Below, in pieces: positions 16,085 to 44,492 of a DNA stretch of 64,000 bases. This DNA is from an uncultured Eubacteriales bacterium. Its GTDB lineage: Bacteria > Bacillota > Clostridia > Christensenellales > Aristaeellaceae. The DNA lies in assembly GCA_900542395.1 (NCBI GenBank), contig UQNM01000001.1, forward strand, positions 863 to 64,862. Direction: 5' to 3'. The notes below the pieces were generated by a model. That model had not been told where the DNA came from. It saw only the letters and a list, made by a program, of their open reading frames with translations, and did no database searches. A program made the translations under genes and the position numbers. Position 1 is the first letter of the stretch. Every line of letters begins with the position of its first letter.

Positions 16085-16136
16085 TTATCCACACTTCTGT
16101 GGATATTGTGGATAAATTGTGGACGAGTGTGGATAA
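16085..16136. promoter_or_regulatory. Cluster of five DnaA boxes (TTATCCACA, TGTGGATAT, TGTGGATAA, TGTGGACGA, TGTGGATAA)
   Basis: Direct matches to the TTATCCACA consensus in both orientations within 52 bp; located downstream of recF and upstream of the 15843 gene. Confidence 0.8.
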
Positions 16137-16198
16137 CTCGGGGATAAGTCCGTTTTTTGCTGTTTTTACACGATTTTGGGCGATTCCCCAAAAGTCGC

Positions 16199-17296
16199 TC
16201 ATTCCCGCGTCAGCACGCCGTTTTCCACGCGATAGACCGCGCCCTGCCGCGCGCCAGCCAGATCGGAGAGATCCGTGCAGGTCACAAACGTCTGCACCCG
16301 GTCGATCCGCTCGATGAGCTGCCGCCTGCGGCTGGGATCCAGCTCGCTCATCACGTCGTCCAGCATCAGAATCGGCGCTTCGCCGCTTTCCGCGCCGGCC
16401 AGCTCGAGCTGCGCCAGCTTGAGGGAGAGCACCGCGCTGCGCTGCTGCCCCTGCGAGGCGAACGTGCGCGCCTCTTTGCCGTCGATGGTGATGGCAATAT
16501 CGTCCCGGTGAATGCCCACGGTCGTCGTCATCCGCCGAAGATCCTCGCTCCGCGCCCGCGAAAGCCTCGCCAAAAGCGCCTCGTAGGCGTCCGGCGCGTC
16601 CGCGACCTGCGAAACATAGCGCAATCGCAGCTCCTCACGCCCGCCGGTCAGCGACAGATGCGCCGCGCACGCAAGCTCGTCGAGCCTGCCCACTGCCTCG
16701 CGCCGGTTTTCACAGATCACCGCGCCCACGCGCGCGAGCTGCTCGTCCCACATGTCCAGCGTCGGCAGCAGCGACGGGTTTCTCGCGATGTCCTTGAGCA
16801 GCGCGTTGCGCTGGTTGAGCGTGCGCACGGCGCGCTGAAGCGCGTAAAAATACGCCGGCCGGAGCTGCGAGAGCTGCATATCCATAAACCGCCGCCGCTC
16901 CGCCGGCCCGTCCTTGACGATTTGCAGGTCTTCCGGCGAAAACAGCACGCCGCAGACGTGGCCGAGCAGCTCGCCGATGCGTTCCGCCTGCCTTAGGCCG
17001 ATGCGCACGGTCTTTTTCTTCCGCTGGGTGCGGCTGAGCACCACGGCAACCTCGTGCGTGCCGTCCCGCTGCGCGGTTTTGACCGTCACGCGCGCGCTGT
17101 CCCGCCCCCACTGGATGAGCTCCTCATCGCGGGAGGTTCGGTGGCTTTTGCCCAGACAGCACAGGTGCAGCGCCTCCAGGACGTTTGTTTTTCCCTGCGC
17201 GTTCGGGCCGGTGAACACGGTCACGCCCGCGTCCGGCTCGATGAGCGCGCGTTCGTAATTCCTGAAATGGCTCAGGCTGAGCGACGTCACCCGCAT
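16199..17296 (-). CDS. recF: DNA replication and repair protein RecF
   Basis: Walker A GPNAQGKTN; RecF signature over the full length. Confidence 0.9.
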   Translation of the reverse strand: MRVTSLSLSHFRNYERALIEPDAGVTVFTGPNAQGKTNVLEALHLCCLGKSHRTSRDEELIQWGRDSARVTVKTAQRDGTHEVAVVLSRTQRKKKTVRIGLRQAERIGELLGHVCGVLFSPEDLQIVKDGPAERRRFMDMQLSQLRPAYFYALQRAVRTLNQRNALLKDIARNPSLLPTLDMWDEQLARVGAVICENRREAVGRLDELACAAHLSLTGGREELRLRYVSQVADAPDAYEALLARLSRARSEDLRRMTTTVGIHRDDIAITIDGKEARTFASQGQQRSAVLSLKLAQLELAGAESGEAPILMLDDVMSELDPSRRRQLIERIDRVQTFVTCTDLSDLAGARQGAVYRVENGVLTRE

Positions 17297-17302
17297 CGGC
17301 GC

Positions 17303-18406
17303 TTATGCGTTGAACACGCGAACCGGGAGCACCAGATACAGATAGCTGTCCCCCTCCACCGGGCAGACCACGCATGGGCTGACGTTGGAGTTGAAGCGCA
17401 TCACAATCCGGTCGTCGGAAAGCGCCTTGAGCACGTCGGTGATGTAGCGCACGTTGAAGGCGATCGTCAGATCCTTGCCCTCGGTGATGACCTGCATCTT
17501 TTCCTCCATGTCGCCCGTCTCCGAGTTGGAGCTGACCTCCAGCGTCTCGCCGTCGAGCTTGAAGCAGACCAGGTTCGATTTGCCCTCGCGGGCGATCAGG
17601 CTCGCGCGGTCGATGGCGCTGCCCAGCTCGGCGCGCTCGACCGTCACGCGGGTCTGCCATTCCTCCGGCAGAATCTGGCGGTAGCGGATAAATTCGCCCT
17701 CCAGCAGGCGCGCGACCACGCGGGTCTGGCCGATGTTCATGCGCACGTGGCTCTTGGTGAAGCACAGGGAGACGGGTTCCTCCGTATCCGCCAAAATCTT
17801 CGCAATGTCGCCCAAAACGCGGCCGCCGACGACGGCGCTGACCGGGGCGGACGGGCCGGCGACGTTCTCCTTGCGCAGCGCGAGGCGGAAGCCGTCCAGC
17901 GCGACGACGCGCATTTCGCTGGCGTTGATTTCCATCAGGCAGCCGGTCAAAATCGGACGGCTCTCATCCTGCGCGATGGCGAACAGGGTGCGGCCGATCA
18001 TATCCTTGAGCGTGTTTTGGGGGAGCTCGAAGCACTCGCCCTCGACCTGCGGCAGCTCCGGGTATTCCACCGGGTCAAAGCCGTTGATCGTGGTGCGGAC
18101 GCTCGCGCAGCGGATCGTCGCCTGCATCCGCTCGCCGATGGCGATGTCGCACGGGCCGCCCGGCAGCTTGCGGATGATTTCGCAGAGCAGCTTGCCCGGC
18201 AGAACGGCGCGGCCTTCCTCGCTGAACGTCGCGGGCAGCAGGGTTTCGATGCCCAGCGCCAGATCGGTGCAGGTGAGGCGGAGCCCTTCGTCGCAGGACT
18301 CAAACAGGATGCCTTCCAAAATCGGCTTGGTGGAGCGCACGGCCAGCGCGCGGCTGACGATGGAGAGGGCGGTATTCAGTTCGTTGGTATCGCAGATAAA
18401 ACGCAT
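17303..18406 (-). CDS. dnaN: DNA polymerase III beta sliding clamp
   Basis: MRFICD... three-domain clamp; GGAGG RBS before ATG at 18406. Confidence 0.9.
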   Translation of the reverse strand: MRFICDTNELNTALSIVSRALAVRSTKPILEGILFESCDEGLRLTCTDLALGIETLLPATFSEEGRAVLPGKLLCEIIRKLPGGPCDIAIGERMQATIRCASVRTTINGFDPVEYPELPQVEGECFELPQNTLKDMIGRTLFAIAQDESRPILTGCLMEINASEMRVVALDGFRLALRKENVAGPSAPVSAVVGGRVLGDIAKILADTEEPVSLCFTKSHVRMNIGQTRVVARLLEGEFIRYRQILPEEWQTRVTVERAELGSAIDRASLIAREGKSNLVCFKLDGETLEVSSNSETGDMEEKMQVITEGKDLTIAFNVRYITDVLKALSDDRIVMRFNSNVSPCVVCPVEGDSYLYLVLPVRVFNA

Positions 18407-18467
18407 TTTTGACAACCTCCATGGGGTAGTAGCTGTATATACGTTCAGCAGCAGGAGCCGTAGAGCG

Positions 18468-18568
18468 GTGGATAACCGGGATAAGTGCCAAAAAGCCATA
18501 CGCGGCCTGCCTTTTTTGCTGTGGATAACACTGAATAAAGCCCAAAACTATCGGCGGATTTATCCACA
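18468..18568. promoter_or_regulatory. DnaA boxes upstream of dnaN (GTGGATAAC 18468, TGTGGATAA 18520, TTATCCACA 18560), followed by an AT-rich stretch at 18700-18850
   Basis: Consensus matches; the AT-rich region resembles a DNA unwinding element (oriC dnaA-dnaN-type half). Confidence 0.7.
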
Positions 18569-18860
18569 ACGCTGTGCACAACTCGGCTCCGTCTGCCCAA
18601 AAGGGCGCTGAAACGGTATAAAAGGGCAAATTCACACCTATTCAGTATTCGCGCTGTCGGGGAAAAATCCTTCCGACGGAGGGCAAGACTTTGCCGCGCG
18701 CGTAAAAATTGAACGCGCCGCCGAACAGGGTTGAGAAAAAAGGTCGGATATGATAAACTGATAATGAAAGCGTATGTTTGATAAGCGGTGCACTTCAAAA
18801 CGCAACCTCAAATAAAATTCGAATCCCCATTTTGTCAGAAGAGAAGGAAAGGCGAGAGCA

Positions 18861-19565
18861 ATGGAAACAGTCAGAAAAACGCGGAAGCTCCCGGAGCAGG
18901 TGGCCGACAAGCTGCGGGAAATGATCATACAGGAATCGCTCAAGACGGGCGCGAAGCTCCCGGCTGAGGCGGAATTGATGGAGCGCTTCGGGGTCAGCCG
19001 CTCGACGGTGCGCGAGGCGGTCAAAATTTTGCAGACGGAGCATATCGTCGATATCCGGCAGGGGCAGGGCACGTTTTTGTGCGCCATGCCGGGGCTGGCG
19101 AGCGACCCGCTGGGGCTGCGCTTCGCCGATCAGGAGGAGCTGATCGCCCAACTGCTGGAGACGCGGCTGCTGATCGAGCCGAACGTCGCGGCGCTGGCGG
19201 CCGTCCGGCGGCAGGAAAAGCAGCTCGTCGCGATGAAGACCCTGCTGGATAAGATGGATAACGCCTATCTGCACGGCGAGGATTACACGCCGTATGATTT
19301 CGAGTTCCACAGCATGATCGCCCAATGCACCGGCAACGACGTGATGATGCGCCTGCTGCCGACGATTCACGAATCCATTCAGGCGGGCTATCACCACACC
19401 CGCCGCGTGGAGGGCAGCTATCAGCGCGCGAGCCAGTGCCATTTGGAGATGTACCGCGGGATTCTGGAGCACGACAGCGAGCGCGCGCGGCAGGCGGCGC
19501 AGCGGCACATGATGCAGACGATGCACGACTCCGGCGTGGAGGTTCCCTCGGTGCTGGTGAAATAA
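18861..19565 (+). CDS. GntR family (FadR/FCD subfamily) transcriptional regulator
   Basis: N-terminal GntR wHTH and C-terminal FCD domain. Confidence 0.85.
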   Translation: METVRKTRKLPEQVADKLREMIIQESLKTGAKLPAEAELMERFGVSRSTVREAVKILQTEHIVDIRQGQGTFLCAMPGLASDPLGLRFADQEELIAQLLETRLLIEPNVAALAAVRRQEKQLVAMKTLLDKMDNAYLHGEDYTPYDFEFHSMIAQCTGNDVMMRLLPTIHESIQAGYHHTRRVEGSYQRASQCHLEMYRGILEHDSERARQAAQRHMMQTMHDSGVEVPSVLVK

Positions 19566-20245
19566 TGGAAACGATCAAAATCATCGCCCGAATCCGCAGC
19601 GACTTTCCGCAGAAATTCGGTATTCCCCGCCAGAGCGGCGTCGTGCCGGAAACGCGCGCGGAAATCGTGTTCGAAAAGCCCTATCAAAACCCGGACGCGC
19701 TGCGCGGCGTCGAGGGCTTTTCGCATCTGTGGCTGATCTGGGGCTTTTCCGCCTGCGAGCGGGATGAGTGGTCGCCGACGGTGCGCCCGCCGAGGCTAGG
19801 CGGCAACGCGCGCATGGGCGTGTTCGCCACGCGGTCGCCGTTTCGCCCCAATCCCATCGGGCTGTCGTCCGTGACGCTTGAGGAAGTGCGGCTGCACACC
19901 CCGGAGGGACCGGTGCTCGTCGTCGGCGGCGCGGATCTGATGGACGGAACGCCGATTTATGATATCAAGCCCTATCTGCCGTATGCCGACTGCCACCCGG
20001 AGGCGACGGGCGGCTTTGCGGAGGAAAAGCGGCATTACGCGCTGGCGGTCGATTTTCCGGCGGCGCTGGAGGCGCGGATCGACCCGGCGCACCGGGCGGC
20101 GCTGCGCGGCGTGCTGGCGCACGACCCGAGACCCTCGTACCAGAGCGACCCTGAGCGCATGTACGGCGTGGCCTTCGCGGGGAAGAACGTCAAATTTACC
20201 GTCGAGGACGGCGTGCTGACGGTGCGGAAAATCGAGAAAATATAA
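19565..20245 (+). CDS. trmO: tRNA (t6A37) methyltransferase TrmO (YaeB family)
   Basis: YaeB/TsaA fold motifs; ATG overlaps the gntR stop (TAATG). Confidence 0.75.
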   Translation: METIKIIARIRSDFPQKFGIPRQSGVVPETRAEIVFEKPYQNPDALRGVEGFSHLWLIWGFSACERDEWSPTVRPPRLGGNARMGVFATRSPFRPNPIGLSSVTLEEVRLHTPEGPVLVVGGADLMDGTPIYDIKPYLPYADCHPEATGGFAEEKRHYALAVDFPAALEARIDPAHRAALRGVLAHDPRPSYQSDPERMYGVAFAGKNVKFTVEDGVLTVRKIEKI

Positions 20246-20258
20246 TATAAAGAACGAG

Positions 20259-20449
20259 GCTGTTAAGCTAACAAAACCGATATTTCAAGGAAAACTAAGA
20301 GTTTTTGCCCGAAGGTTTCCAAAGGGCGATGCGCCAAACTGGCGCCGTAAACGCTCGGAAAGCCCTTTGGTGGGGCGATGGGGCAAAGCCCCATATTCTG
20401 AAAATGCTTAGTTTTTGATTCTTGAAATATCTGGATTGAGCTTGACAGC
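20259..20449. repeat. Family A MITE-like repeat, copy 2 (inverted relative to copy 1, about 20 bp longer)
   Basis: TIRs GCTGTTAAGCT / AGCTTGACAGC; internal sequence homologous to 944-1110. Confidence 0.7.
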
Positions 20450-20475
20450 CTCGTTTTATGTCGGCGCGTATGAAA

Positions 20476-21246
20476 TCAGGAATTTTCGTCGTCCTTCAAT
20501 AAATCCTTCAGCTTCTGATCCGGCGCGGAGGCTTCGTCCTCCGGCAGATGCAGGTCGATGTGGTCGCCGGGCTGCTCCAGCGCGACGATGCGCGTCTGCG
20601 GGGTTTCCCCGGTGACGGCAAAGCGCAGCGCGACGTCCGGCCGCCCCTGAAAGTGCATCGGGATAAAGACCTTGGGCTTGACAGTCATGATGAAATAGCC
20701 CGCGCCCGCGTCGTACATGCTGCCCTGACGGGGATCGACCGGGAAAAACGCCACGTCGATCTTCTGCTTGGGAATCGGCGCGACGCAGTCGTAGAACGCG
20801 CGCTCGGCGGATTCGATTTCCGTGACGGAGGATTCGTCCCGCCAGTGCCACAGGTTCAGGTCGCCCGCGTGGAACAGCGTGACGCCCGCAAAATCGACGC
20901 AGAACGAAACGCCATCGTCCGTCGAGCCGTAGGCGTTCACCGTCAGCGCGCCGAATGTGCGCGCCTCGCCGGGGGACATGCGCACGCCCTTGTAGGGCTG
21001 CGGAATGTCAAACCCGAGGATATAGGTCGCGTTTTCGCCGCACAGATCGTAGATCGCCGGGGAAAAGTGATCGTCGTGGTGATGGCTGACAAACACATAC
21101 AGCTTTTCAAACGCCGCGAGCGCCGCCGGATCGGGCAGAGCGCGCCGATCCGGGCCGGATTCGCTGGCGTCAAAGAGCAGGCCGGTGCCGCCGAGCGAAA
21201 CGAGGAAGCCGCTTCCCCCTAAATAGTCAATCGCGATATCCTTCAT
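20476..21246 (-). CDS. MBL-fold metallo-hydrolase
   Basis: HHHDDH motif. Confidence 0.8.
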   Translation of the reverse strand: MKDIAIDYLGGSGFLVSLGGTGLLFDASESGPDRRALPDPAALAAFEKLYVFVSHHHDDHFSPAIYDLCGENATYILGFDIPQPYKGVRMSPGEARTFGALTVNAYGSTDDGVSFCVDFAGVTLFHAGDLNLWHWRDESSVTEIESAERAFYDCVAPIPKQKIDVAFFPVDPRQGSMYDAGAGYFIMTVKPKVFIPMHFQGRPDVALRFAVTGETPQTRIVALEQPGDHIDLHLPEDEASAPDQKLKDLLKDDENS

Positions 21247-21535
21247 ATCGATGCGCTCCTTTCCGTATATTCGCTCCTTTCATTTTATCCATTTTTTTCC
21301 ACTTGTCAATCTTTTTCACCGCTCTTTCTCCACCGATGCTCCATTAAGGCGGCAAAAACGGTTTGAAACGGGAATGGCTGCACCACTTTCTGTCAAAATT
21401 CGTCATAAAGTGTCGGAAATCGTGATTCGCGCGCACCCCGCCGCGTCCGGCGCGGCGGATGGGAGCGTTTGAAAATTGTCAGGCAAATTGTGTTTTTCGC
21501 CATGTTGACCGCGCCGAGATTTGGCGCATTTAACG

Positions 21536-21564
21536 TTGACACATTTTGCCGCCCTCCGTATAAT
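21536..21564 (+). promoter_or_regulatory. Consensus sigma-A promoter (TTGACA-17-TATAAT) for the marR-ABC operon
   Basis: Exact -35/-10 hexamers with 17-bp spacing, 32 bp upstream of the GTG start. Confidence 0.7.
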
Positions 21565-21595
21565 AACTCACAGTGTTAGCAAAAGGAGGGATTCT

Positions 21596-22072
21596 GTGAC
21601 AGGTAACGCCGCGCTGACGGAAGAAATGACGCGCCTGCTGGATGAACACCCGCGGGAGGCGCGGGAAAACCGTTTCAGCGCAAGCCTGTGCGGCGAAATG
21701 GCCGTGATGCGGCTTTTGCATAACGGGACAAAGAAAAAAATGACGGCGGGCGAGCTGAGCAGCAGGCTGAGCATGACCACCTCGCGCGTCGCCGCCGTGC
21801 TGGGCAGCCTTGAAAAGAAGGGGCTGCTCGAGCGCGAAAACGACGCGGTTGACCGCCGCCGCGTGCTCGTCTCCCTGACGCAGGCGGGCGAGGCGCTCTG
21901 CGAAAAGCGCAAAGCGCATTTTAAGAGCAAAATCGCGCTGCTGCTGTCCATGCTGGGCGACGACGCGCCCGAATTTGTGCGGCTGCTCGGGCGGGTGTTT
22001 GAAATCACGTCGTCCGATGCGTTCAGGCGGTGCGAGTGCATTGAAGAAGATCAGGAGGGATTCAATGGCTGA
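21596..22072 (+). CDS. MarR family transcriptional regulator
   Basis: wHTH MarR core; GTG start with AAGGAGGG RBS. Confidence 0.7.
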   Translation: MTGNAALTEEMTRLLDEHPREARENRFSASLCGEMAVMRLLHNGTKKKMTAGELSSRLSMTTSRVAAVLGSLEKKGLLERENDAVDRRRVLVSLTQAGEALCEKRKAHFKSKIALLLSMLGDDAPEFVRLLGRVFEITSSDAFRRCECIEEDQEGFNG

Positions 22073-23867
22073 AACAAAACCGGCCGGCGCAAAAAAGCAT
22101 ATCACCGGCGCGCGCATTGCGCGGGAAATCAAACAGTATAAAAAGGACGCGCTGATTTCGCCGATGTATACCGTGTGCTGCGTCATTCTCGAAATTCTGA
22201 TTCCGTATCTCACCGCGTCCATCATCGACAAGGGCATCGCCGTGGGAAACATGGCGCACGTCGCGAAGATCGGCGCGCTGATGGCGGTGATGGCGATTCT
22301 GGCGATGTTCTTCGGCGTTCGCGCGGGCGTGCACAGCGCGCGGGCGAGCACGGGGCTGGCGAGCAATCTGCGCGAATCCATGTTCGGGCGGATTCAGGCG
22401 TATTCCTTCTCCAACATCGACAAGTTCTCCACCGCAGGGCTTGTCACGCGCCTGACCACCGACGTCACCAACATCCAGAATGCCTTTCAGATGATTCTGC
22501 AAATCTGCACCCGCGCGCCGGTGACGCTGATCGTCGCGCTGTTCATGGCGTTTTCCATCAACGCGAAGCTCTCGCTCGTGTTTCTGGTCGCGATGGCGTT
22601 TCTGGGCGTGATGATCGTCGTGCTCATCCCCAAGGCGATGAAATATTTCAAGCTGATGTTCCGCAAGTACGACGCGGTGAACGGCGTGGTGCAGGAAAAC
22701 GTCGGCGCGATCCGCGTGGTCAAGGCGTTTGTCCGCGAGGATTACGAGGATGAAAAATTCTCCGGCGCGGCGAACGCGCTGTTCAAAAATTCCATCTCCG
22801 CCGAGCGCATCATCTCGTTCTCCATGCCGATCATGCAGCTCACCGTCTACGCCTGTATTCTGTCCATCAGCTGGTTCGGCGCGAAGATGATCGTGGGGCA
22901 GACCGGCCTGACCACGGGCGAACTGACCAGCCTGCTCTCCTACGTGATGAACATCCTGATGAGCCTGATGATGCTCTCCATGGTCTTTGTCATGGTCACG
23001 CAGTCCGCCGCGGCGGCGCAGCGCATCGAGGAGGTGCTCGAGGAGCAGCCGGACATCACCAGCCCGGAAAACGCGGTCAAGACCGTGAAGGACGGCTCCG
23101 TTGATTTCAGTCACGTGACGTTCGCCTATCAGCAGCGCAGCGGCAAGCCGGTGCTCAGCGATATCGACCTGCACATCCGCTCCGGCGAGACGATCGGCGT
23201 GATGGGCGGCACGGGCTCCTCGAAGTCGAGCCTCGTCAGCCTCATCTCCCGCCTGTACGACGTGACGGCGGGCGAGGTGCGCGTCGGCGGCGTGGACGTG
23301 CGCAAATACGACGTGGAGAGCCTGCGCGACGCGGTTTCCGTCGTGCTGCAAAACAACGTGCTCTTCTCCGGCACGATTTACGATAACCTCCGCTGGGGCA
23401 ATGAAAACGCGACGGACGAGCAATGCCGCGAGGCCTGCCGTCTGGCCTGCGCGGACGAATTTATCGAGCGATTCCCGGAAAAATACAACACCCGCATCGA
23501 GCGCGGCGGCACGAACGTATCCGGCGGCCAGAAGCAGCGCCTGTGCATCGCCCGCGCGCTGCTCAAAAACCCGAAGGTGCTCATTCTGGATGACTCCACC
23601 AGCGCCGTCGATACCGCGACGGACGCGAAGATTCGCGAGGCCATGCGCACCCACATCCCCGGCACGACCAAGATCATCATCGCGCAGCGCATTTCCTCCA
23701 TTCAGGATGCGGATCGCGTGCTCGTGCTGGACAACGGCCGGGTCAATGCGTTTGATACCCCGGAGAATCTGCTGAAGACCAACGCGATCTATCAGGAGGT
23801 CTACAACAGTCAGGCCGGAAGCGGCAGCGGCGACTTTGACGAGGCCGCCATGAAGGGAGGCGACTGA
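22065..23867 (+). CDS. ABC transporter permease/ATP-binding protein (exporter half, fused TMD-NBD)
   Basis: Six TM segments, Walker A GGTGSSKS, LSGGQKQR signature; AGGAGGG RBS. Confidence 0.85.
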   Translation: MAETKPAGAKKHITGARIAREIKQYKKDALISPMYTVCCVILEILIPYLTASIIDKGIAVGNMAHVAKIGALMAVMAILAMFFGVRAGVHSARASTGLASNLRESMFGRIQAYSFSNIDKFSTAGLVTRLTTDVTNIQNAFQMILQICTRAPVTLIVALFMAFSINAKLSLVFLVAMAFLGVMIVVLIPKAMKYFKLMFRKYDAVNGVVQENVGAIRVVKAFVREDYEDEKFSGAANALFKNSISAERIISFSMPIMQLTVYACILSISWFGAKMIVGQTGLTTGELTSLLSYVMNILMSLMMLSMVFVMVTQSAAAAQRIEEVLEEQPDITSPENAVKTVKDGSVDFSHVTFAYQQRSGKPVLSDIDLHIRSGETIGVMGGTGSSKSSLVSLISRLYDVTAGEVRVGGVDVRKYDVESLRDAVSVVLQNNVLFSGTIYDNLRWGNENATDEQCREACRLACADEFIERFPEKYNTRIERGGTNVSGGQKQRLCIARALLKNPKVLILDDSTSAVDTATDAKIREAMRTHIPGTTKIIIAQRISSIQDADRVLVLDNGRVNAFDTPENLLKTNAIYQEVYNSQAGSGSGDFDEAAMKGGD

Positions 23868-23869
23868 GC

Positions 23870-25771: not shown

Positions 25772-25778
25772 TAATGAG

Positions 25779-32722: not shown

Positions 32723-32723
32723 G

Positions 32724-34290: not shown

Positions 34291-34296
34291 CGTATT

Positions 34297-34325: not shown

Positions 34326-34334
34326 GTATGGAAA

Positions 34335-35873: not shown

Positions 35874-36938
35874 TCACTGCATGCTCAGCTTGAACGTCGT
35901 CCAGATATCCTGGTATTTCTGCTCGTCCTCGCTGGACAGGTTGCGCACATACTCCGCGTCGTCGATGCGGTCATAAATGCCGTTGAACACCGGGTTGTTC
36001 AGGTAGCTTTCGGAGAGGCTGGCCTTCGCCGCCTCGTTCGGGCTGCAATAATACTGCCACTCGGCGCAGACCGCCGCGACTTCCGGGCGCAGCAGGTACT
36101 GGAGGAAGCGGTTCGCGTTCTTGGCGTGCGGCGCGTTCACCGGGATGAAGCAGCCGTCGATGCCGAAGCCCAGCCCCTCTTCCGGCCAGACGACCTTCAA
36201 ATCCGGGTTGGCGTCCAGCGCCAGCGCGACGAACGGGGTGAAGGTGTAGGCCACGGCGATGTCGCCGGAAACCAGATAGTTGTGCAGGTTCTCATATTCG
36301 AGCACGTGGATGTTGCTGCGCAGCGCGTCGAGCTTTTCCGCTGCCTCCGCGAGCACCGCGTCGTCGGTGGTGTTCATGCTCTGGTGCATGGAGAGCAGCA
36401 CCATGCCGATGGTCACGCGCGCGTCGTCGATCAGGCCGAGGCTGTCCTCAAGGGACGGATCCCACAGGTCGTTGAAGCCCTTGATGTCGATTTCCACCGC
36501 GGACGGATCGTAGACGATCAGCGGAATGCCGCTCACATACGGCACGACGTACTGGTTGTCCGGATCGAAGAACTGATGGGTGAAGCCCGCGTTCAGGTTG
36601 GAATAGTTATCCACGATGGCGGGGTCGAACGGCTGCATCAGCCCGGCTTCGCGGGTGGTGTTGAGCATGTAGTCGCTGGCCAGCACCACGTCGTAATCGC
36701 TGCCGTTCACCGCGGAGAGCTTTTCATACATCTCCTCGTTGCTGGAGAAGGTCGCATAGTTGACCTTGATGCCCGTCTCCTCCTCAAACGGCTTGATGAC
36801 GGTCGAGTAGTCGATGTAACCTTCCCAGGTGAAGACGTTGAGCACGGCCTCGTCGGTCTTGTTCTCGGTCTCCGCCAGGGCGCAGCCGCCGATGGTCAGC
36901 AGCGCAAGCAGCAGGCAAAACAGTTTCTTCATGTCCAT
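35874..36938 (-). CDS. potD: spermidine/putrescine ABC transporter substrate-binding lipoprotein
   Basis: Lipobox LTIGGC; PotD-like sequence; operon with potABC. Confidence 0.8.
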   Translation of the reverse strand: MDMKKLFCLLLALLTIGGCALAETENKTDEAVLNVFTWEGYIDYSTVIKPFEEETGIKVNYATFSSNEEMYEKLSAVNGSDYDVVLASDYMLNTTREAGLMQPFDPAIVDNYSNLNAGFTHQFFDPDNQYVVPYVSGIPLIVYDPSAVEIDIKGFNDLWDPSLEDSLGLIDDARVTIGMVLLSMHQSMNTTDDAVLAEAAEKLDALRSNIHVLEYENLHNYLVSGDIAVAYTFTPFVALALDANPDLKVVWPEEGLGFGIDGCFIPVNAPHAKNANRFLQYLLRPEVAAVCAEWQYYCSPNEAAKASLSESYLNNPVFNGIYDRIDDAEYVRNLSSEDEQKYQDIWTTFKLSMQ

Positions 36939-37020
36939 GTCCCTCCTTGATTCAGGAACGATTGATCTATCTCAAACGCGGGATGCGTTTGATGCGGTTT
37001 CTTTGGGCTTTGCCCTTTAA

Positions 37021-37120
37021 CTCCTTCCGTCACGCCTACGGCGTGCCACCTCCCTCAACGAGGGAGGCAGGCAAGCGGAATACCGAAGGTCTGTCGGTGA
37101 GAATGACTGAAGGAGTCGGA
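37021..37120. repeat. Family C mosaic repeat, copy 1, in the potC-potD intergenic region
   Basis: Modules tccgtcacgcctacggcgtgcc, cctccctcaacgagggagg and ggcaggcaagcggaa..ccgaaggtct are shared with 42598-42740, 50720-50860, 56084-56268 and 61470-61575. Confidence 0.65.
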
Positions 37121-37125
37121 TTGAT

Positions 37126-37932
37126 TTATTTTAATCTCGCGTTGCTCCGGGCGGTCACCAGTTGGCTGAAGGCCACGCAGATAAAGATCACGCCGAGCAT
37201 CAGGGTGGAGAGCGCGTTGATCTCCGGTGTGCCGCCGGAACGCAGGCCGGTGTAGACCTTGAGCGGCAGGGTGGTCGTCTCCGCGCTGGTGACGAAGAAG
37301 GAGATCACTACGTCGTCAAGGCTCATCGCGGCGGAAAGCATCATGCCGGAGAGCACCGCCGGAAAGACCAGCGGCAGGGTGATGTCCTTCAAAACGCGCG
37401 CCGGGCTTGCGCCGAGGTCGCGCGCGGCCTCCGACAGCGAAGGATCCATGCCGATCAGGCGGGATTTGACGTTGATGAACACATAGGGGATGCAGAAGGT
37501 CGTGTGCGTCAGCACCAGCGCGCCCATGCCGAGCTTAAAGCCCACGGCGGTGAACACGGAGAGATACGCCATGCCCAGCACCAGCTCGGGGATCATCATC
37601 GGCAGGGTGGCGAGGGTTTCGACCGCGCCGCCGAGCTTCAGGTGTGACCGCGCCAGCCCGATTGCGCCCAGCGTGCCGATGCCGCCCGCCAGCAGGCTGG
37701 AGACGACGGCCAGAACCAGCGAATTTTTGAGCGCGTCGGCCATCAGGGCGTTGGAAAACAGGCGGCTGTACCAATCGGTCGTGAAGCCCTGCCAGCTTCC
37801 GATGGTGCGCCCGCTGTTGAAGGAATAGATGACGACCATCAGAATCGGCAGATAGAGGACGATCAGCACCAGCGTCAGATAGACGGGGGAAAAGATTTTG
37901 CGCTTTCTGCGCCGCTTCGCCTGCGCCATCAC
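37126..37932 (-). CDS. potC: spermidine/putrescine ABC transporter permease
   Basis: ABC TMD with EAA loop. Confidence 0.85.
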   Translation of the reverse strand: MMAQAKRRRKRKIFSPVYLTLVLIVLYLPILMVVIYSFNSGRTIGSWQGFTTDWYSRLFSNALMADALKNSLVLAVVSSLLAGGIGTLGAIGLARSHLKLGGAVETLATLPMMIPELVLGMAYLSVFTAVGFKLGMGALVLTHTTFCIPYVFINVKSRLIGMDPSLSEAARDLGASPARVLKDITLPLVFPAVLSGMMLSAAMSLDDVVISFFVTSAETTTLPLKVYTGLRSGGTPEINALSTLMLGVIFICVAFSQLVTARSNARLK

Positions 37933-38792
37933 ATCACCCCCAGATCATCGCCGCCGACCTTGCGATATAGCAGATAGATGCCGGCGGAAAGCGCGATGAG
38001 CACCATGCTCATCGCCGAGCCGACGTTCCAGTCGCGCACCTTGAGAAGCTGGTCGCGGATGAGGTTGCCCACCAGCACCAGACCGCCGCCCATGATATCC
38101 GACAGATAGAACAGGCCGACGCTGGGCACGAACACCAGCACGCAGCCGGCGAGAATGCCCGGCATGGTCAGCGGCAGCGTGACGGTGAGGAACGCCCGAA
38201 CGGGGCTTGCGCCCAGATCGCGCGAGGCCTCCACCAGCGTGAAATCCATCTTATCCACCGCGTTGTGGCACGGCAGAATCATAAAGGAAATCAGGCAGTA
38301 GACCATCGCCAGCAGCACCGAGCCGTAGGAGCCGAGAAACTTGATGTTTTTCTGAATCAGCCCCAGCGAGCGGAGCACGCCGTTGACCGGGCCGTTGGCC
38401 TGCAAAAGGATCTTCCAGCCGTAGATACGCACCAGCGCGCTCGTCCAGAACGGGATGATGACCAGCATCATCAGCAGCGCCTTCCATTTGCGCGGGGCGC
38501 GCGCCATGCAGTAGCCGAAGGGATAGCCCACCAGCAGGGAGATGACCGTCGTGAAGAACGCGAGCTGGAGGCTGTTGGCGAAGACCTTGAGATAATCCTC
38601 GCGCAGCAGCGCCTTGTAGTTGGCGAGCGTCAGCGGCATGCCGAATTGAAATTTGCCGCCCGTCACCAGCGACGTGCAGAGCACGTAGATCAGCGGCAGG
38701 GCGACCAGCAGCACGCCGAAGGCCGCCATCGGCGCGGTCATCAGCGCGTGGGTGCGCCGCTCGTGCGCCTGAAGGGTATTTTTACGCGCCAT
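37929..38792 (-). CDS. potB: spermidine/putrescine ABC transporter permease
   Basis: ABC TMD; start MARKNT overlaps the potA end. Confidence 0.8.
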   Translation of the reverse strand: MARKNTLQAHERRTHALMTAPMAAFGVLLVALPLIYVLCTSLVTGGKFQFGMPLTLANYKALLREDYLKVFANSLQLAFFTTVISLLVGYPFGYCMARAPRKWKALLMMLVIIPFWTSALVRIYGWKILLQANGPVNGVLRSLGLIQKNIKFLGSYGSVLLAMVYCLISFMILPCHNAVDKMDFTLVEASRDLGASPVRAFLTVTLPLTMPGILAGCVLVFVPSVGLFYLSDIMGGGLVLVGNLIRDQLLKVRDWNVGSAMSMVLIALSAGIYLLYRKVGGDDLGVM

Positions 38793-39870
38793 GGGACGTC
38801 CCCCCAATGACCGCGGCCTGCGCGGGATTCCAATACAGGTAGGCGGTGCTGCCGGGCGTGAGCGCGTCGCTGAGGCGGCCTTCGCTCGTCGCGACGGCTT
38901 CTTCGCCGTCGGGGAGGATGGCATAGGTCAGCACGCTGCCGCCTGCGTAGCGCGCCTCGCGCACGGTGACGGGCAGTTGAAAGCCCTCGACCGGCACGGG
39001 GGAAACGCGCATCCGCTCCGTGCGCACGCAGATTTCGCAGTCCTCGCCTGCGCAAAGCCGCGCGCGGGAAGCGTCCGCCGTGAAGCTGCCGCAGGCGCCG
39101 CGGATGACCGCCGTATCCTTTCCGACGGATTCCACCTTGCCGCTGAGAATGGTGGAGCGGCCGATGAACTGCGCGACGTAGTGCGTCTTCGGCTCGTCGT
39201 AGATTTCTTCCGGCGTGCCGAGCTGCTCAAAGCGCCCGCCGCGCATGACCGCGATGCGGTCGGACATGTTGATGGCCTCTTCCTGATCGTGGGTGATGTA
39301 GACGAAGGTGATGCCCAGCTTCTTTTGCAGGCGCTTGAGCTCAAGCTGCATTTGGCGGCGGAGCTGCAAATCCAGCGCGCCCAGCGGTTCATCCAGCAGC
39401 AGCAGCTCCGGTTCGGGCGCGAGCGCGCGGGCGATGGCGATGCGCTGGCGCTGACCGCCGGAAAGCTGGCTGGGCATGCGCTTGGCAAAATCCGCCATCT
39501 GCACCAGTTCGAGCATCTCGCGCACGCGCTTTTCGATGGAGGCTTTATCCATCCTGCGCACGCGCAGGCCGTAGGCCACGTTCTTTTCGACGTTCATATG
39601 CGGAAAGAGCGCGTAGCTCTGAAAGACCGTGTTGACGGGGCGGCGCTCCGGCGGCAGCGCGGTGACGTCCCGGCCGTCCAGCAGCACCGTGCCCTCGTCC
39701 GGCGTTTCCAGACCGGAGATTATGCGCAGGGTCGTCGTCTTGCCGCAGCCGGACGCGCCCAGCAGCGTGACGAACTCGCCTCTGGCGACATCCAGCGAGA
39801 TATCGCGCAGAACGTCGCCCTCGCCGAAATCCTTGGAAATGTGCTGTAAAGAAAGAAGGGTATCCTGCAT
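38782..39870 (-). CDS. potA: spermidine/putrescine ABC transporter ATP-binding protein
   Basis: Walker A GASGCGKTT, LSGGQRQR signature, C-terminal TOBE domain. Confidence 0.9.
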   Translation of the reverse strand: MQDTLLSLQHISKDFGEGDVLRDISLDVARGEFVTLLGASGCGKTTTLRIISGLETPDEGTVLLDGRDVTALPPERRPVNTVFQSYALFPHMNVEKNVAYGLRVRRMDKASIEKRVREMLELVQMADFAKRMPSQLSGGQRQRIAIARALAPEPELLLLDEPLGALDLQLRRQMQLELKRLQKKLGITFVYITHDQEEAINMSDRIAVMRGGRFEQLGTPEEIYDEPKTHYVAQFIGRSTILSGKVESVGKDTAVIRGACGSFTADASRARLCAGEDCEICVRTERMRVSPVPVEGFQLPVTVREARYAGGSVLTYAILPDGEEAVATSEGRLSDALTPGSTAYLYWNPAQAAVIGGTSHGA

Positions 39871-40023
39871 GGTTTCCTCCCTGAGTCATCAAGCCTGTGC
39901 GGGCGGGGCTTTGCGCCGCAACCCATAAAAACAGCATGATTATATGCTAGAAAAAGCGCCGTGTCAACCATAAAGTTCAGCGGGAAAAATGTGCAGGTTT
40001 AATGCAGCTAAACTTCCGGCGGG

Positions 40024-40060
40024 AAAAAGACCCTCTTTGCGCAAAAACGCGCAAGAGGGC
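40024..40060 (-). terminator. rho-independent terminator downstream of the amino-acid ABC operon
   Basis: gccctcttgcgc-guuuuu-gcgcaaagagggtc followed by UUUUU on the minus strand. Confidence 0.7.
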
Positions 40061-40074
40061 GCAGAAATGGTGGC

Positions 40075-40830
40075 TCAATCGCCACATTCTCCGGCGAACG
40101 CGCGGATGGCCGCGCTGCGGGCGCTGCCAAGCACCTCTTTGGCCGGGCCATCCTCCGCGACGAGGCCGTTTTCCATATAAATCACGCGATCCGCCACATC
40201 GCGGGCGAAGTTCATTTCGTGGGTGACGACGATCATCGTGCGCTTTTCGGCGGCTAACTGACGGATGACGCAGAGCACCTCCTGCGTGAGCTGCGGGTCA
40301 AGCGCGCTGGTCGGCTCGTCAAAGCAGAGAATTTCCGGATCCATGGCCAGCGCGCGGGCGATGGCGACGCGCTGACACTGCCCGCCGGAGAGGTTGCAGG
40401 GATACGCGCCCGCCTTATCCGCAAGGCCGACCTTTTCCAGCAGGAGCATGGCCTTCTGCTCGGCCTCCTGGCGGCTTCGATGGAGCACAAGCTGCTGCGG
40501 CGCGACGATGTTGCGCAGCACCGTGTAATGCGGAAAGAGGTTGTAATCCTGAAAGACGAGCCCCATCTTGAGGCAGAGCCCGCGCAGGTCTTTTTCCGTC
40601 CGATAGCGCGCCGCGCCATCCGCGCCAGTGGTGACCATCGCCTGACCGTCGATGCGGATTTCGCCGCTGTCGATGGTTTCAAGGTGGTTGAGACAACGCA
40701 GGAGGGTGCTCTTGCCCGAACCGCTGCGGCCGATGACGGCGACGACCTCGCCCTTGTCCACGCGCACGGTCACGCCCTTCAAAATTTCGTTGTCGCCGTA
40801 TTTTTTTCTGATGTCAATCGCCTGAAGCAT
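40075..40830 (-). CDS. polar amino acid ABC transporter ATP-binding protein
   Basis: Walker A GRSGSGKST, LSGGQCQR signature; GlnQ/HisP-like. Confidence 0.85.
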   Translation of the reverse strand: MLQAIDIRKKYGDNEILKGVTVRVDKGEVVAVIGRSGSGKSTLLRCLNHLETIDSGEIRIDGQAMVTTGADGAARYRTEKDLRGLCLKMGLVFQDYNLFPHYTVLRNIVAPQQLVLHRSRQEAEQKAMLLLEKVGLADKAGAYPCNLSGGQCQRVAIARALAMDPEILCFDEPTSALDPQLTQEVLCVIRQLAAEKRTMIVVTHEMNFARDVADRVIYMENGLVAEDGPAKEVLGSARSAAIRAFAGECGD

Positions 40831-40871
40831 GACCCTTGTTCTCCCTTTCCGTTTCCGCGCCGGAGCGCTTG

Positions 40872-41537
40872 TCAATCCTTGTAATACGCCATGCGGCGAT
40901 TGAGGCAGCCGAACACGAGCGAGACCGCGCCGTTCATCAGCAGATAGAAAAGCCCCGCGACAAAGAGCGGCTCGACGGAGGCGGTGCGGCTGGCCTCGTT
41001 CTTCGCCGCGCGGAACAGCTCGGCGACGGCGATCACGTTCGCCAGCGACGTATCCTTGACCAGCGTAATCACCTCGTTGCTGACCGGCAGCAGCACGCGC
41101 TTCGCCATCTGCGGCAGAATGACGTGAAAAAACGTCTGTCCGCGCGTCATGCCCAGCACCTGACCGGCCTCGCGCTGCCCGACGGGGATGGATTGAATCC
41201 CGCCGCGGAAGATTTCGGCGAAATAGGCGGCGTAGTTGATGGAAAAGGCGAGGATGGTGGCATTCATGCGGTCGAGGTTCACGCCCGTCAGCGTCGGAAT
41301 GGCAAAATAGATGGCGAAGATTTGCAGCATCAGCGGCGTGCCGCGCATCACCAGAATATACAGCGACGTCGGCACGCTGACGATCTTGCGCCTGCTCATG
41401 CGCAGCAGCGCCACGGCCAAGCCGAGCGGCAGGGAAAACAGCAGCGTGAAGAAGAAAATAATCAGCGTGTTATAAAAGCCGCCCGTCATGGAAAGCACGA
41501 GCTTCATAAAGGCGTCGAAATTGTTGAAGTATCGCAT
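40872..41537 (-). CDS. polar amino acid ABC transporter permease (alternative start at 41576)
   Basis: His/Glu/Gln/Arg/opine permease family; GGAGG-7-ATG at 41537. Confidence 0.8.
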   Translation of the reverse strand: MRYFNNFDAFMKLVLSMTGGFYNTLIIFFFTLLFSLPLGLAVALLRMSRRKIVSVPTSLYILVMRGTPLMLQIFAIYFAIPTLTGVNLDRMNATILAFSINYAAYFAEIFRGGIQSIPVGQREAGQVLGMTRGQTFFHVILPQMAKRVLLPVSNEVITLVKDTSLANVIAVAELFRAAKNEASRTASVEPLFVAGLFYLLMNGAVSLVFGCLNRRMAYYKD

Positions 41538-41574
41538 GAAGGCCTCCGAAAAGGTGATATGGACGGAAAGGGCC

Positions 41575-41605
41575 ATTTTCTCCCCCCTTCGGGGAGAAAA
41601 TGGCT
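41575..41605 (-). promoter_or_regulatory. Perfect 13-bp GC-rich REP-like hairpin between the SBP and permease genes (ccattttctcccc-loop-ggggagaaaatgg)
   Basis: Palindrome read directly from the sequence; related to the hairpin core of Family B repeats. Confidence 0.7.
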
Positions 41606-41610
41606 GTTTA

Positions 41611-42420
41611 TCAGTCCGCGTATTGAGCGACCAGCGTGATGTCATTGGCGAACCACTTGGCGCGGATGGTGTCCAGCGTGCCGTCTTTGAACATATCGAT
41701 GAGCTGCTGGCTCACCGCGTCGGCGAGGGTCTGTTCGCCCTTGCGGAAGGCAATGCCGTATTCCTCGGCTTCCAGCACATCGGGCAGCACGGTGAACTGG
41801 GTCGGATCGTCCTGTTGGGCGATGTAGTAATTGCCAACCACGGAGTCGATCAGCAGCACGTCGATGCCGCCGAGCTTGAGATCCATCAGCGCGGTCACGA
41901 AATCATCGTACAGCTGCGGCTCGCCGATGGCCGCCAGCAGATCGGGGTTCGCGTTCAGCACGTCCACGGAGCTGGAACCGGCCTGCGTGCCAAGCACCTT
42001 GCCGGAAAGATCCGCCTCAGAGGCGATGCCGGAATCGGAACGAACGACGAGAATCTGCTCGTTGGCCAGATACGGGATGGAGAAGGTCATCTGCTCGATG
42101 CGCTCCGGGGTCATCGTCAGACCCGACCAGATGCAGTCGATGTTTTTGCCGGAAAGCTCCAGCTCCTTGGAGTCCCACGAGACCGGCTGGAGGACGAGCT
42201 CCACGCCGAGACGGTCGGTGACTTCCTTGGCCAGATCGATGTCAAAGCCGACGTATTCGCCGTTTTCATCGACAAAGCCCATCGGCGGGTATTCCTCGTC
42301 AAAGCCCATCACGAAGGTGCCCTTCGCCTTGACATCCCCAAGGCCGGTATCTTCCGCCAGCGCGGCGGTGAAGCAGAGGGTGAGGATGGCGGCCAGCAGA
42401 GCGGCAAGCATCTTTTTCAT
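41611..42420 (-). CDS. polar amino acid ABC transporter substrate-binding protein
   Basis: Signal peptide; SBP family 3 sequence. Confidence 0.85.
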   Translation of the reverse strand: MKKMLAALLAAILTLCFTAALAEDTGLGDVKAKGTFVMGFDEEYPPMGFVDENGEYVGFDIDLAKEVTDRLGVELVLQPVSWDSKELELSGKNIDCIWSGLTMTPERIEQMTFSIPYLANEQILVVRSDSGIASEADLSGKVLGTQAGSSSVDVLNANPDLLAAIGEPQLYDDFVTALMDLKLGGIDVLLIDSVVGNYYIAQQDDPTQFTVLPDVLEAEEYGIAFRKGEQTLADAVSQQLIDMFKDGTLDTIRAKWFANDITLVAQYAD

Positions 42421-42499
42421 AAGGGATTGCTCCTTTCCGAATGACCGGCGAAGATTTGCCGGCTGTTTACTTTAATGTGTTAGCGCTTTAATGTGATGA

Positions 42500-42528
42500 A
42501 GTATACCACGCGAAAAACGGTTTGTCAA
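42500..42528 (-). promoter_or_regulatory. sigma-A promoter TTGACA-17-TATACT for the amino-acid ABC operon
   Basis: Consensus hexamers on the minus strand. Confidence 0.6.
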
Positions 42529-42597
42529 CGGGGTTTTGAAGTTTTTTTGAAAACAGTAAATGAGCAAATCCGAAATTCTGCACTAATTCCGATAACG

Positions 42598-42740
42598 GGC
42601 GCGCGATGCGCGCCTACCTGACTCCCTCAGTCACGGCTACGCCGTGCCAGCTCCCTCGAAGAGGGAGCTCTATATCAGGTTATTTCCCGTCTAAGCAATA
42701 AGTTGCACCGTACCCGTAGGGGCGCGCATCGCGCGCCCGC
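42598..42740. repeat. Family C mosaic repeat, copy 2, with 20-nt terminal inverted repeats (gggcgcgcgatgcgcgcc / ggcgcgcatcgcgcgccc), immediately downstream of dnaA
   Basis: Inverted homologue of 56084-56127; contains the gtcacggctacgccgtgcc and ctccctcgaagagggag modules. Confidence 0.7.
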
Positions 42741-42900
42741 TTTTTATGCAGAATTTGCTTTTTGCTCAATGAGTGGTGGAAAAGTTTTCCACATTCAAGG
42801 ACAAACTGTGGAAAAAAACCGACGCTGCGAAACAGCGTCGGTGGCGGAAAGCGCAGAAAACTCAGTTTTCTGCCGGAGTTGGGGCAGAGCCTCAACGTAT

Positions 42901-44226
42901 TTATTTCTCGGTGATGATCTTTTTCAGATCGGCAATCGAGCTCTTCATATCCGAAGAGGTATCGAGCATCTTGGTCACCTTGTCGCAGGAATTGATGATC
43001 GTCGAGTGATCGCGGCCGAAAGCGTCGCCGATGCGCGGCAGGCTCAGCCCGGTCATCTCGCGCGTCAGATAGACGGCGACGTGGCGCGCCAGCGCGATTT
43101 CCTTCTTGCGGGAATCGCCGCGCAGCATATCCGCGCTCAGGCTGTAATAATCGGCCACGCAGTCGATAATCAGCTCCGGCGTGATGCGCTTGGGATCGCG
43201 CACGACGGCGATATCGTGCAGCGCGTGGGAGATGACCTCCTCGTTGATTTCGCAGTGGTTCAGCTTGGCGTAGGCGTTGACGCGGGTCAGCGAGCCTTCC
43301 AGCTCGCGGATGTTGCTCTCGATGCGCCCGGCGATAAGCTCCAGCATCTCGTCGCTGATTTCAATGCCCTCGTTTTCGGCCTTCTTGCGCAGAATGGCGA
43401 TTCGGGTATCGAAATCCGGCTTCTGAATGTCGGCGATCAGGCCCCACTCGAAGCGGCTGCGCAGGCGCTCCTCCAGACGGGCGATTTCGCGCGGCGGCTT
43501 ATCGGAGGAGATGATGATCTGCTTGCCCGCGCTGTGCAGGGCGTTGAAGGTGTGGAAGAATTCTTCCTGCGTGGAATCGCGGCCGGCGATAAACTGAATG
43601 TCGTCCAGCATCAGCACATCGACGTTGCGGAAGCGGTTGCGAAATTCCACGTTCTTGTTGTTCTTGATGGCGGCGACCAGCTCGTTGGTGAACATCTCGC
43701 TGGGCAGATAGAGCATGCGCATGTTCGGAAAATGATCCTGAATGAAGTGGCCGATGGCGTGCATCAGGTGCGTCTTGCCCAAGCCGACGCCGCCGTAGAG
43801 GAACAGCGGGTTATAGGCCATGCCCGGCTGCTCGGCGACGGCCAGCGCGGCGGCGTGCGCGAAGCGGTTGGACGAGCCGACAACGAACGTGTCAAACGTC
43901 GATTTCGGGTTGAACATGTTGATGCCCTGCATCGCCGGGGCGTCTTCCTTCTTCTGGCGCTCCTGCCACTCGATGCGCTCCTTGACGCTCATCAGCTCGA
44001 TGGTCATTTCGCGCCCGGCGGCCTGACTCACCGCTTCGGTGATCATCGGCAGATAGCGCGCGCGGATGGTCTTCTCGTTAAAATCGCTGATGACCTCCAG
44101 CGCGAGCTTGTCGTCCACCACATACACGGGCTTGAGCGGCTGCTCGATCCATGTGGTATAGGAAACGTTGGCCAGCTCCTCGCGCATCAGTGCCTTGGCC
44201 TTATCCCATAATTCGATATGATCCAT
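42901..44226 (-). CDS. dnaA: chromosomal replication initiator protein DnaA
   Basis: AAA+ Walker [11 protein letters not shown], DnaA signature, C-terminal HTH; GGAGG RBS. Confidence 0.92.
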
Positions 44227-44292
44227 GGCGGAAACCTCCGTATCTTCTGCGGCGCGTGACGGCCGCTTTCCCACAATCTGTACACATATCCC

Positions 44293-44492
44293 TGTGGATA
44301 TACTGTGGATATCCACAATACTTTCCACAGCTTGTGGAAAGATAGACTCCACCTGTGGATAACTTCTTATGACAGCTTTCCTATCATATCAAAAAAAAGC
44401 CCTGTTTTCAAGGCTTTTTTGGCAGGCGGCGAAAAGAAAGAAAATGCAGCTTTCATCCGCCTGCTCTGCCGGTTCATCGCGGGTTATCCACA
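44293..44492. promoter_or_regulatory. oriC/dnaA promoter region with at least six DnaA boxes (TGTGGATAT x2, ATATCCACA, TGTGGAAAG, TGTGGATAA, TTATCCACA)
   Basis: Consensus matches on both strands upstream of dnaA. Confidence 0.8.

Follow-up and report, generated by a model that had tools for sequence, protein, structure and literature searches.

We analysed 64,000 nucleotides of the genome of an uncultured Eubacteriales bacterium (Christensenellales; Aristaeellaceae; contig UQNM01000001.1 of assembly GCA_900542395.1; this whole stretch is referred to as the window), in which the replication initiator gene dnaA does not adjoin dnaN and recF. In the clade to which this genome belongs dnaA has been separated from dnaN, and we consider it likely that the working origin of replication stayed behind at the dnaN leader. 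The origin is placed there because the minimum of the cumulative GC skew falls within dnaN, because no switch in skew occurs at dnaA, and because the conserved leader contains the only module of the window in which DnaA boxes are followed by a run of DnaA-trios.

Genes were called across the window using GC content at third codon positions (GC3) and identified with NCBIfam profiles (the GC content of the source genome is ~62%). The replication genes and the blocks of genes between them are:

42901-44226, minus strand: dnaA (TIGR00362, 515 bits; 441 aa), apparently monocistronic, with a GGAGG ribosome-binding site and an ATG start at 44226.
31154-42420, all minus strand: dnaA side of the intervening block, with an amino-acid ABC transporter, potABCD, an amidohydrolase and leuCDB.
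18861-30853, almost all plus strand: dnaN side of the intervening block, with GntR, TrmO, an MBL-fold gene (on the minus strand), MarR, two ABC exporters, a 218-aa protein, SEDS, PBP2 and SBP genes.
17303-18406, minus strand: dnaN (TIGR00663, 291 bits).
16199-17296, minus strand: recF (TIGR00611, 365 bits).

The gene calls and profile matches bear out a preliminary description of this DNA, which had put dnaA about 24.5 kb from dnaN-recF: all three genes share one strand, and 24.5 kb separate the dnaA stop from the dnaN start. DnaA boxes (TTATCCACA, at most one mismatch) occur 27 times in the window versus an expectation of 4.3, a count reached in 0 of 100 shuffles. They cluster upstream of dnaA (44293-44362 and 44484-44516), upstream of dnaN (18467-18568) and downstream of recF (16073-16136), so that the separate clusters already reported at dnaA and at dnaN are both present, each on the upstream side. 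The intervening DNA had been taken for a single strand block and instead consists of two opposed blocks that converge at ~31 kb. The block on the dnaN side is transcribed away from dnaN; that on the dnaA side runs in the direction of dnaA, so that a fork arriving from dnaN would meet it head-on. A proposed FHA-SEDS-PBP2 module holds as far as SEDS and PBP2 are concerned, but the protein upstream of them (26128-26784) has no Pfam match at E <= 0.01 that would justify the FHA label. We also considered whether the intervening DNA is a mobile element and rejected this, as no integrase or transposase genes were seen and the cargo is of a housekeeping kind (leuBCD, potABCD, SEDS-PBP2). An Rfam search of 15-46 kb gave no matches.

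The probability that contigs were wrongly joined between dnaA and dnaN is negligible, and misassembly, raised earlier as an explanation, is excluded by overlapping independent contigs that reproduce the layout. Separate contigs, up to 960 kb long and derived from different samples and assemblers, tile the whole interval: loci L007-L012 run from dnaN to PBP2, L103 from dnaN to potA, and L001-L006 from leuC to dnaA. Two of the loci (L001 and L098) come from a single 217-kb scaffold, on which the spacing between kduD and dnaA is 44.9 kb, compared with 42.3 kb in the window. The identical DnaA protein was found in 4911 collection blocks of gut metagenomes, and it is 91% identical to the DnaA of Candidatus Ventricola intestinavium.

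The separation is a property of the clade. As a baseline we used about 70 loci obtained by a DnaA search of genome contigs, whose DnaA proteins are at most 53% identical to that of the window among the matches listed. In these loci, which again among the matches listed represent diverse Bacillota and other phyla, the dnaA-dnaN gap is 140-660 bp, with one exception of 3.2 kb. They include two metagenome-assembled genomes of more distant Christensenellales (L084 and L085) that have the closest DnaN of the baseline (44%) and in which dnaA and dnaN are adjacent. No clade relative examined (DnaN 60-92% identical) has dnaA immediately upstream of dnaN. In L096 the two genes point the same way, with dnaA 8.8 kb upstream and the gap between them occupied by MFS, GH2 and LrgAB genes; L093, L097 and L232 have no dnaA across 10 kb upstream of dnaN, and the other clade loci have none in the 0.5-5.7 kb of upstream sequence covered. 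The two most divergent relatives (L234 and L236, DnaN 60% identical) came from a further DnaN search that took the most distant relative as its query and otherwise gave mostly loci already in the set. A metagenome scan with a 17-base trio pattern yielded 120 stretches, 17 of them true dnaN leaders and nearly all of these from one species.

Synteny downstream is kept clade-wide (dnaN, recF, a 400-aa unknown protein, CvpA and a 641-aa membrane protein), and the genes upstream of dnaN vary: GntR-TrmO in L093 and L231, a formate/nitrite transporter with transketolase in L232, LrgAB in L094 and TrmO alone in L234. On the dnaA side, no dnaN lies closer than 10 kb to dnaA in L101, which comes from an 86%-identical species; the order ArsC-SDR-dnaA and the upstream boxes are kept in that species, and the genes downstream of dnaA differ. 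Since the roughly 70 diverse loci, including L084 and L085, keep the two genes adjacent, the split is a derived state. These data support the earlier proposal of an ancestral dnaA-dnaN locus split by rearrangement or insertion: the outgroups are adjacent, and the length and cargo of the gap vary within the clade. The dnaA-dnaN junction was thus broken in the ancestor of the clade, leaving a gap that became a hot spot where ordinary chromosomal genes were gained and exchanged. As a separate observation, L096 and L097 encode identical DnaN proteins, yet more than 2 kb upstream their sequences are wholly different (dnaA-MFS-GH2 versus SNF2-RadC-GidB), so that the flank left of the origin in these loci is rearranged even at or near the strain level.

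Strand asymmetry switches at dnaN. Across the window the cumulative GC skew reaches its lowest value at 17827, within dnaN; in another contig of the same species (L007) the minimum, at 10685, is likewise inside dnaN. Informative relatives were five loci from four species (L096 and L097 share identical DnaN; the 13-kb L231 was counted as uninformative). Within dnaN at 10001-11104, the minimum falls at 10077 in L093 and at 10462 in each of L096, L097 and L232; in L094 it falls at 6755, within dnaN at 5700-6809. The most telling of these is L096, which carries both genes on one locus and has its minimum at dnaN, not at dnaA. A per-gene regression of skew on coding strand and side of the candidate origin gave a residual sum of squares of ~160-174 for origins at 12.5-18.5 kb, versus 272-276 at 42.5-44.5 kb. 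The GC3 skew of the plus strand over the 12 genes at 31-44.3 kb, dnaA included, is +0.133 ± 0.025 (p = 0.0015 against 0), compared with +0.084 beyond dnaA and -0.047 (p = 0.005) left of dnaN. The genes between 31 and 44.3 kb therefore have the same sign as those beyond dnaA and the opposite sign to those left of dnaN. A polarity switch was seen only at dnaN, with none at dnaA in the window or in L096. In 8.8 kb fetched from left of the window the skew is still weakly negative. According to the preliminary description, the case would be ordinary lineage architecture if relatives shared the separation and had a skew minimum at just one of the two sites. The relatives have both features, so the arrangement belongs to the lineage and is not an anomaly of a single genome.

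The dnaN leader of ~270 bp (18407-18673) is conserved across eight lineages, whatever gene stands further upstream. Toward dnaN, the order is an AT-rich element, an inverted pair of boxes, a perfect box and a hairpin, tandem boxes, GCT, a run of trinucleotides, GTATATAC and the ribosome-binding site. The elements are:

18616-18673, minus strand: distal AT-rich element, GGAAGGATTT...CGAATACTGAATAnGnnnGAATTTGCCCTTTTATAC, conserved in eight lineages and recognisable in L234 and L236.
18520-18582, no strand assigned: DnaA boxes, comprising the inverted pair TTGTGCACA-N4-TGTGGATAA (18560-18582) and TTATCCACA (18520-18528).
~18490-18517, no strand assigned: conserved hairpin, CAAAAAAG...CTTTTTTG here and CCAAAAAG...GGCTTTTTGG in relatives.
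18435-18484, minus strand: candidate basal unwinding system (BUS), comprising tandem boxes, spacer, trios and a short AT element.
18467-18484, minus strand: tandem boxes of the candidate BUS, TTATCCCGG (18476-18484) abutting TTATCCACC (18467-18475), conserved in eight lineages.
18446-18463 (trios), minus strand: spacer and trios of the candidate BUS, GCT followed by CTA CGG CTC CTG CTG CTG.
18435-18442, minus strand: AT element of the candidate BUS, GTATATAC, 8 bp, including TATATAC.

Nowhere else in the 64 kb do four or more YTN trios follow a box within 16 nt. Across the eight lineages the CT of each triplet is fixed between species and variation falls mainly at the third trio position, as expected for DnaA-trios (3'-GAN-5' on the opposite strand). 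Textbook trios occupy the same place in the two 60% relatives, which are of lower GC: TTTTCCACA TCTTCCACA GGA CTA CGT CTC CTT CTT CTA TTT CTT in L236, and CTT CGT CTA TTA CTC CTA TTT in L234. The unsplit dnaA-dnaN spacers contain TTATCCACA GTATACACA CGC CTA CTA CTA CGA CGA ATA ATA followed by TTTATATATATAAC in L085, and TTTTCCACA ATATGCACA GCGC CTA TTA CTA TAA CTA AAA followed by a 26-bp A/T tract in L084. The module of the window is collinear with both (box, box, GC spacer, trios, AT-rich stretch). On this sequence evidence, the unwinding site most likely lies at 18435-18484, adjoining dnaN.

This narrows the position of the functional DNA unwinding element, previously described as unclear, to the dnaN leader, on the grounds of conservation, the uniqueness of the box-plus-trio combination and collinearity with the outgroups. 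The box cluster noted earlier upstream of dnaN is present (18467-18568), but the AT-rich stretch paired with it (18700-18850) is not conserved in relatives, and the conserved elements lie instead within 18407-18673. That stretch also holds a divergent match to a GntR promoter (18731-18759), and on both grounds it was ruled out as an unwinding element. A scan of 40-bp stability does not discriminate, as most intergenic regions are AT-rich; the module site is not among the 25 least stable in the window.

The published BUS rule allows a box with up to two mismatches, a spacer of 0-16 bp and at least three trios with a conserved central base (PMC8287927). The window module has this combination, with TTATCCACC, a 9-bp spacer and CTC CTG CTG CTG at 18446-18475 on the minus strand, and the tandem second box TTATCCCGG is likewise present. 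It differs in that the third base of the trios is G or C, CGG interrupts after the first CTA, and the AT tract is very short. The module also agrees with the trio of Clostridioides difficile oriC2, 5'-CACCTACTACTATTACTACTATGA-3' (PMC7561715).

Several observations weigh against an origin at the dnaN leader. The AT element that follows the trios is ~8 bp long, versus 14-26 bp of pure A/T in L084 and L085; the trios are CTG or CTC, not the preferred CTA or TTA; and the ribosome-binding site of dnaN lies at most 15 bp beyond them. The conserved leader could also be, in part, the promoter and leader of dnaN; a simple consensus promoter scan gave no match for a dnaN promoter. Gene orientation is co-directional for only about half of the genes right of the proposed dnaN-side origin, which is weak for a Firmicute. 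The skew rests on at most ~73 kb here and 17-21 kb in the informative relatives, not on a whole replicon, and the leftmost genes (1-5 kb) are not clearly negative. In L101 a local cumulative-skew minimum occurs at ~15200, 4 kb downstream of dnaA, at a convergent junction without DnaA boxes; this is probably the trace of a rearrangement, and it shows how noisy skew is over 20 kb.

Downstream of recF is a further array of boxes:

16073-16136, no strand assigned: recF-downstream DnaA-box array, with four head-to-tail boxes ~10-11 bp apart, then two inverted, and no trios.

This is the densest array in the window (5 boxes at no more than one mismatch) and was passed over in the preliminary description, even though the region delimited there begins within it. 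The head-to-tail boxes are at about helical spacing, and no trio runs were found in the array by eye or by script. It is kept, with 5-7 boxes, in every clade locus that reaches past recF (L093, L094, L096, L097, L234 and L236), down to 60% DnaN identity. By contrast, the 500 bp downstream of recF contain at least three boxes in 0 of 60 canonical dnaA-dnaN-recF loci (mean 0.47); the same 60 loci have on average 5.6 boxes ahead of dnaA and 3 between dnaA and dnaN. The array is clade-specific and has been found so far only with split genomes. It may stand in for the neighbouring half of the origin that was lost, or it may titrate or regulate DnaA. The gene that follows (14635-15843) encodes a conserved protein of ~400 aa that in the clade always stands after recF and the box array, and its only match, to PQQ_2/BamB-like domains, is sub-threshold.

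The surroundings of dnaA are laid out as follows:

44484-44516, no strand assigned: two distal DnaA boxes, between the stop of the SDR gene and its terminator-like hairpin, with counterparts in L101 at 9710 and 9743.
44383-44411, minus strand: promoter-like site for dnaA, TTGAAA, 17 nt, TATGAT, with TG before the -10 (consensus scan 10/12).
44268-44362, no strand assigned: dnaA-upstream DnaA-box cluster, with 5 boxes at no more than one mismatch and ~3 weaker ones.
42818-42842, no strand assigned: intrinsic terminator of dnaA, followed by three weak TTTTCCAC-type boxes at 42775-42815.

Because it has its own promoter match and its own strong terminator, dnaA looks like an autonomous unit. The main upstream boxes lie downstream of the promoter match, which puts them inside the predicted transcribed leader and makes the cluster fit autoregulation, for which such a placement is usual. 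Clusters are similarly placed upstream of dnaA in the 86%-identical L101 and L102, and neither inspection by eye nor a script found trio runs in the window cluster. We infer that the cluster is an autoregulatory operator and a relic of an oriC1-type half. On the other side, dnaA had been described as running straight into a repeat and an amino-acid ABC operon; the operon is there, but the terminator and the three weak boxes intervene. These boxes are not conserved downstream of dnaA in L096 or L101. Between the terminator and the ABC operon is a 142-bp element (42597-42738) resembling a miniature inverted-repeat transposable element, with perfect 18-bp terminal inverted repeats GGGCGCGCGATGCGCGCC that are also found at 56086-56104; the spacer that holds it measures 277 to 701 bp depending on the strain. 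In the distal boxes, TGTCGAT overlaps a DnaA-like box at 44508-44516, and we take this motif to resemble the Spo0A-box consensus TGTCGAA.

The following course of events would account for these features. In the clade ancestor, a canonical dnaA-oriC-dnaN unit would have been broken just downstream of dnaA, and different chromosomal genes would have gathered in the gap afterwards, amounting to 24.5 kb in this species. DnaA would bind the tandem boxes at 18467-18484 and its filament would extend over the CTN run at 18446-18463, with the duplex opening at and past TATATAC, just upstream of the dnaN ribosome-binding site. The leftward fork would then pass through dnaN-recF and the rightward fork through the GntR-to-PBP2 block, before the latter meets the leu-pot-ABC-dnaA block head-on. 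The displaced dnaA would now be a stand-alone, self-terminated gene whose upstream boxes are most likely autoregulatory, and the array downstream of recF, 2.3 kb away, may be an auxiliary DnaA-binding site, as an oriC1-type replacement or as a titration or regulatory cluster.

The first of these two roles leads to a tentative possibility, somewhat doubtful as it stands, that the origin is bipartite around dnaN-recF: the recF array would take the part of the oriC1/incAB half, and DnaA sitting on it and on the dnaN-proximal cluster would loop out the 2.3-kb dnaN-recF segment and aid opening at the dnaN-proximal module. This refines an origin at the dnaN leader and does not contradict it. The conservation of the array in all clade loci reaching past recF, its absence from the canonical loci and a box count close to their dnaA-upstream mean all speak for it, but the array might just as well control the 402-aa gene downstream or titrate DnaA. 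DnaA-box clusters of B. subtilis are said to titrate DnaA. Unwinding of C. difficile oriC2 in vitro requires oriC1 (PMC7561715), which favours a second half, whereas the basal unwinding system of B. subtilis takes only boxes 6 and 7 (as cited in PMC7561715). It is conceivable, if less than probable, that a two-part Firmicute origin has been rebuilt here, with dnaA and its oriC1 cluster displaced, a newly evolved recF array as the second half, and the unwinding module reduced to boxes, GC-rich trios and an AT core of 8 bp that overlaps the leader of dnaN.

Two further arrangements would give the dnaA locus a part in initiation. An origin still at dnaA, made up of the upstream cluster, the three downstream TTTTCCAC boxes and the AT-rich spacer, with the dnaN boxes regulating dnaN-recF only, appears highly improbable. 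The upstream cluster is the richest beside any replication gene, AT-rich 40-mers occur at 44359-44398 and 42466-42505, and ~60% of genes would be co-directional with an origin at 44.4 kb versus 52%; but those AT-rich stretches coincide with the promoter and terminator matches, the downstream side is not conserved between species, and neither a skew switch (in the window or L096) nor a box-trio module is found there. We regard as very unlikely, too, a single long-range origin in which the dnaA-upstream cluster and the dnaN module are looped together across ~25 kb. In its favour, the clade conserves both clusters, and canonical Firmicute origins likewise rely on a pair of clusters, within a rnpA-rpmH-dnaA-dnaN context (PMC7561715). 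Against it, the separation varies between 8.8 kb and over 24 kb and the cargo is unrelated, placement in a promoter leader suffices to explain why the dnaA cluster is conserved, and a nearer conserved array exists at recF. The suggestion of one bipartite origin with halves ~25 kb apart is thus not supported, given a distance that is not conserved, a skew that switches only at dnaN and a dnaA cluster that fits autoregulation.

Compared with the bipartite oriC of Firmicutes (incAB-dnaA-incC in B. subtilis, oriC1-dnaA-oriC2 in C. difficile), the dnaN module of the window shares the element order of oriC2/incC, and dnaA likewise keeps an upstream cluster as in oriC1/incAB. The canonical oriC1-dnaA-oriC2 arrangement is not found, in that downstream of dnaA there are only three weak boxes and neither trios nor an unwinding element. 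The window differs further in that dnaA and its cluster are 24.5 kb off, versus 0.2-0.4 kb; in that dnaA lacks rpmH-rnpA neighbours and has an SDR gene and an ArsC/Spx-like gene instead; and in the ~8-bp AT element and the extra array downstream of recF. In E. coli, oriC lies about 42 kb from dnaA-dnaN-recF-gyrB. The initiator gene is there likewise tens of kb from the origin, but dnaA and dnaN remain together and the origin has moved, whereas in the window dnaN stands with the origin and dnaA apart.

A layout of this kind is known from cyanobacteria. In Synechococcus elongatus PCC 7942 and Anabaena PCC 7120 oriC is at dnaN and dnaA is unlinked; a review proposes that the ancestral origin lay between dnaA and dnaN and that dnaA later translocated (PMC4009838). 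The window matches this architecture (boxes and predicted origin at dnaN, dnaA apart), not the phylogeny. The clade differs in that dnaA has kept its side and orientation and lies just 9-25 kb off, in boxes that are mostly TTATCCACA rather than TTTTCCACA, and in the presence of the recF-downstream array. A dnaN-linked origin with a moved dnaA is therefore already known in cyanobacteria and unusual for Firmicutes, and we see the present case as a useful extension, not a surprise. Our literature search, which was incomplete in coverage, found no account of a dnaN-linked origin with displaced dnaA in Clostridia.

In a very common Clostridia lineage of the human gut, then, dnaA and its box cluster lie 9-25 kb or more away from the predicted origin, which suggests that proximity of origin halves is not obligatory; the recF-downstream array is a candidate substitute half that can be tested. 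If the rebuilt bipartite origin is real, these genomes would be a natural experiment on which parts of an origin can be replaced. In practical terms, origin finders and peak-to-trough growth estimators anchored on dnaA would misplace the origin by ~25 kb here, and we suggest that the origin of these genomes be annotated at dnaN.

A few other features of the window were recorded. Directly behind an M20 peptidase gene, a small open reading frame (8296-8610) is flanked by inverted pairs of DnaA boxes at 8155-8176 and 8612-8643. In L093 (4354-4384) and L094 (3016-3047) a box pair again lies close to the M20 peptidase region; in L094 it abuts the 3' end of the peptidase gene although that gene is placed differently relative to dnaN. 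The region 48000-50000, between alpha-amylase and aldose-epimerase genes, is of low GC (0.50 versus 0.62), and its gene content is strain-variable (a methyltransferase in L002, an acetyltransferase in L003 and NUDIX in L001). Pfam matches identify a GerA-GerB-GerC-type spore germination operon at 3118-6770, which suggests that the organism forms spores.

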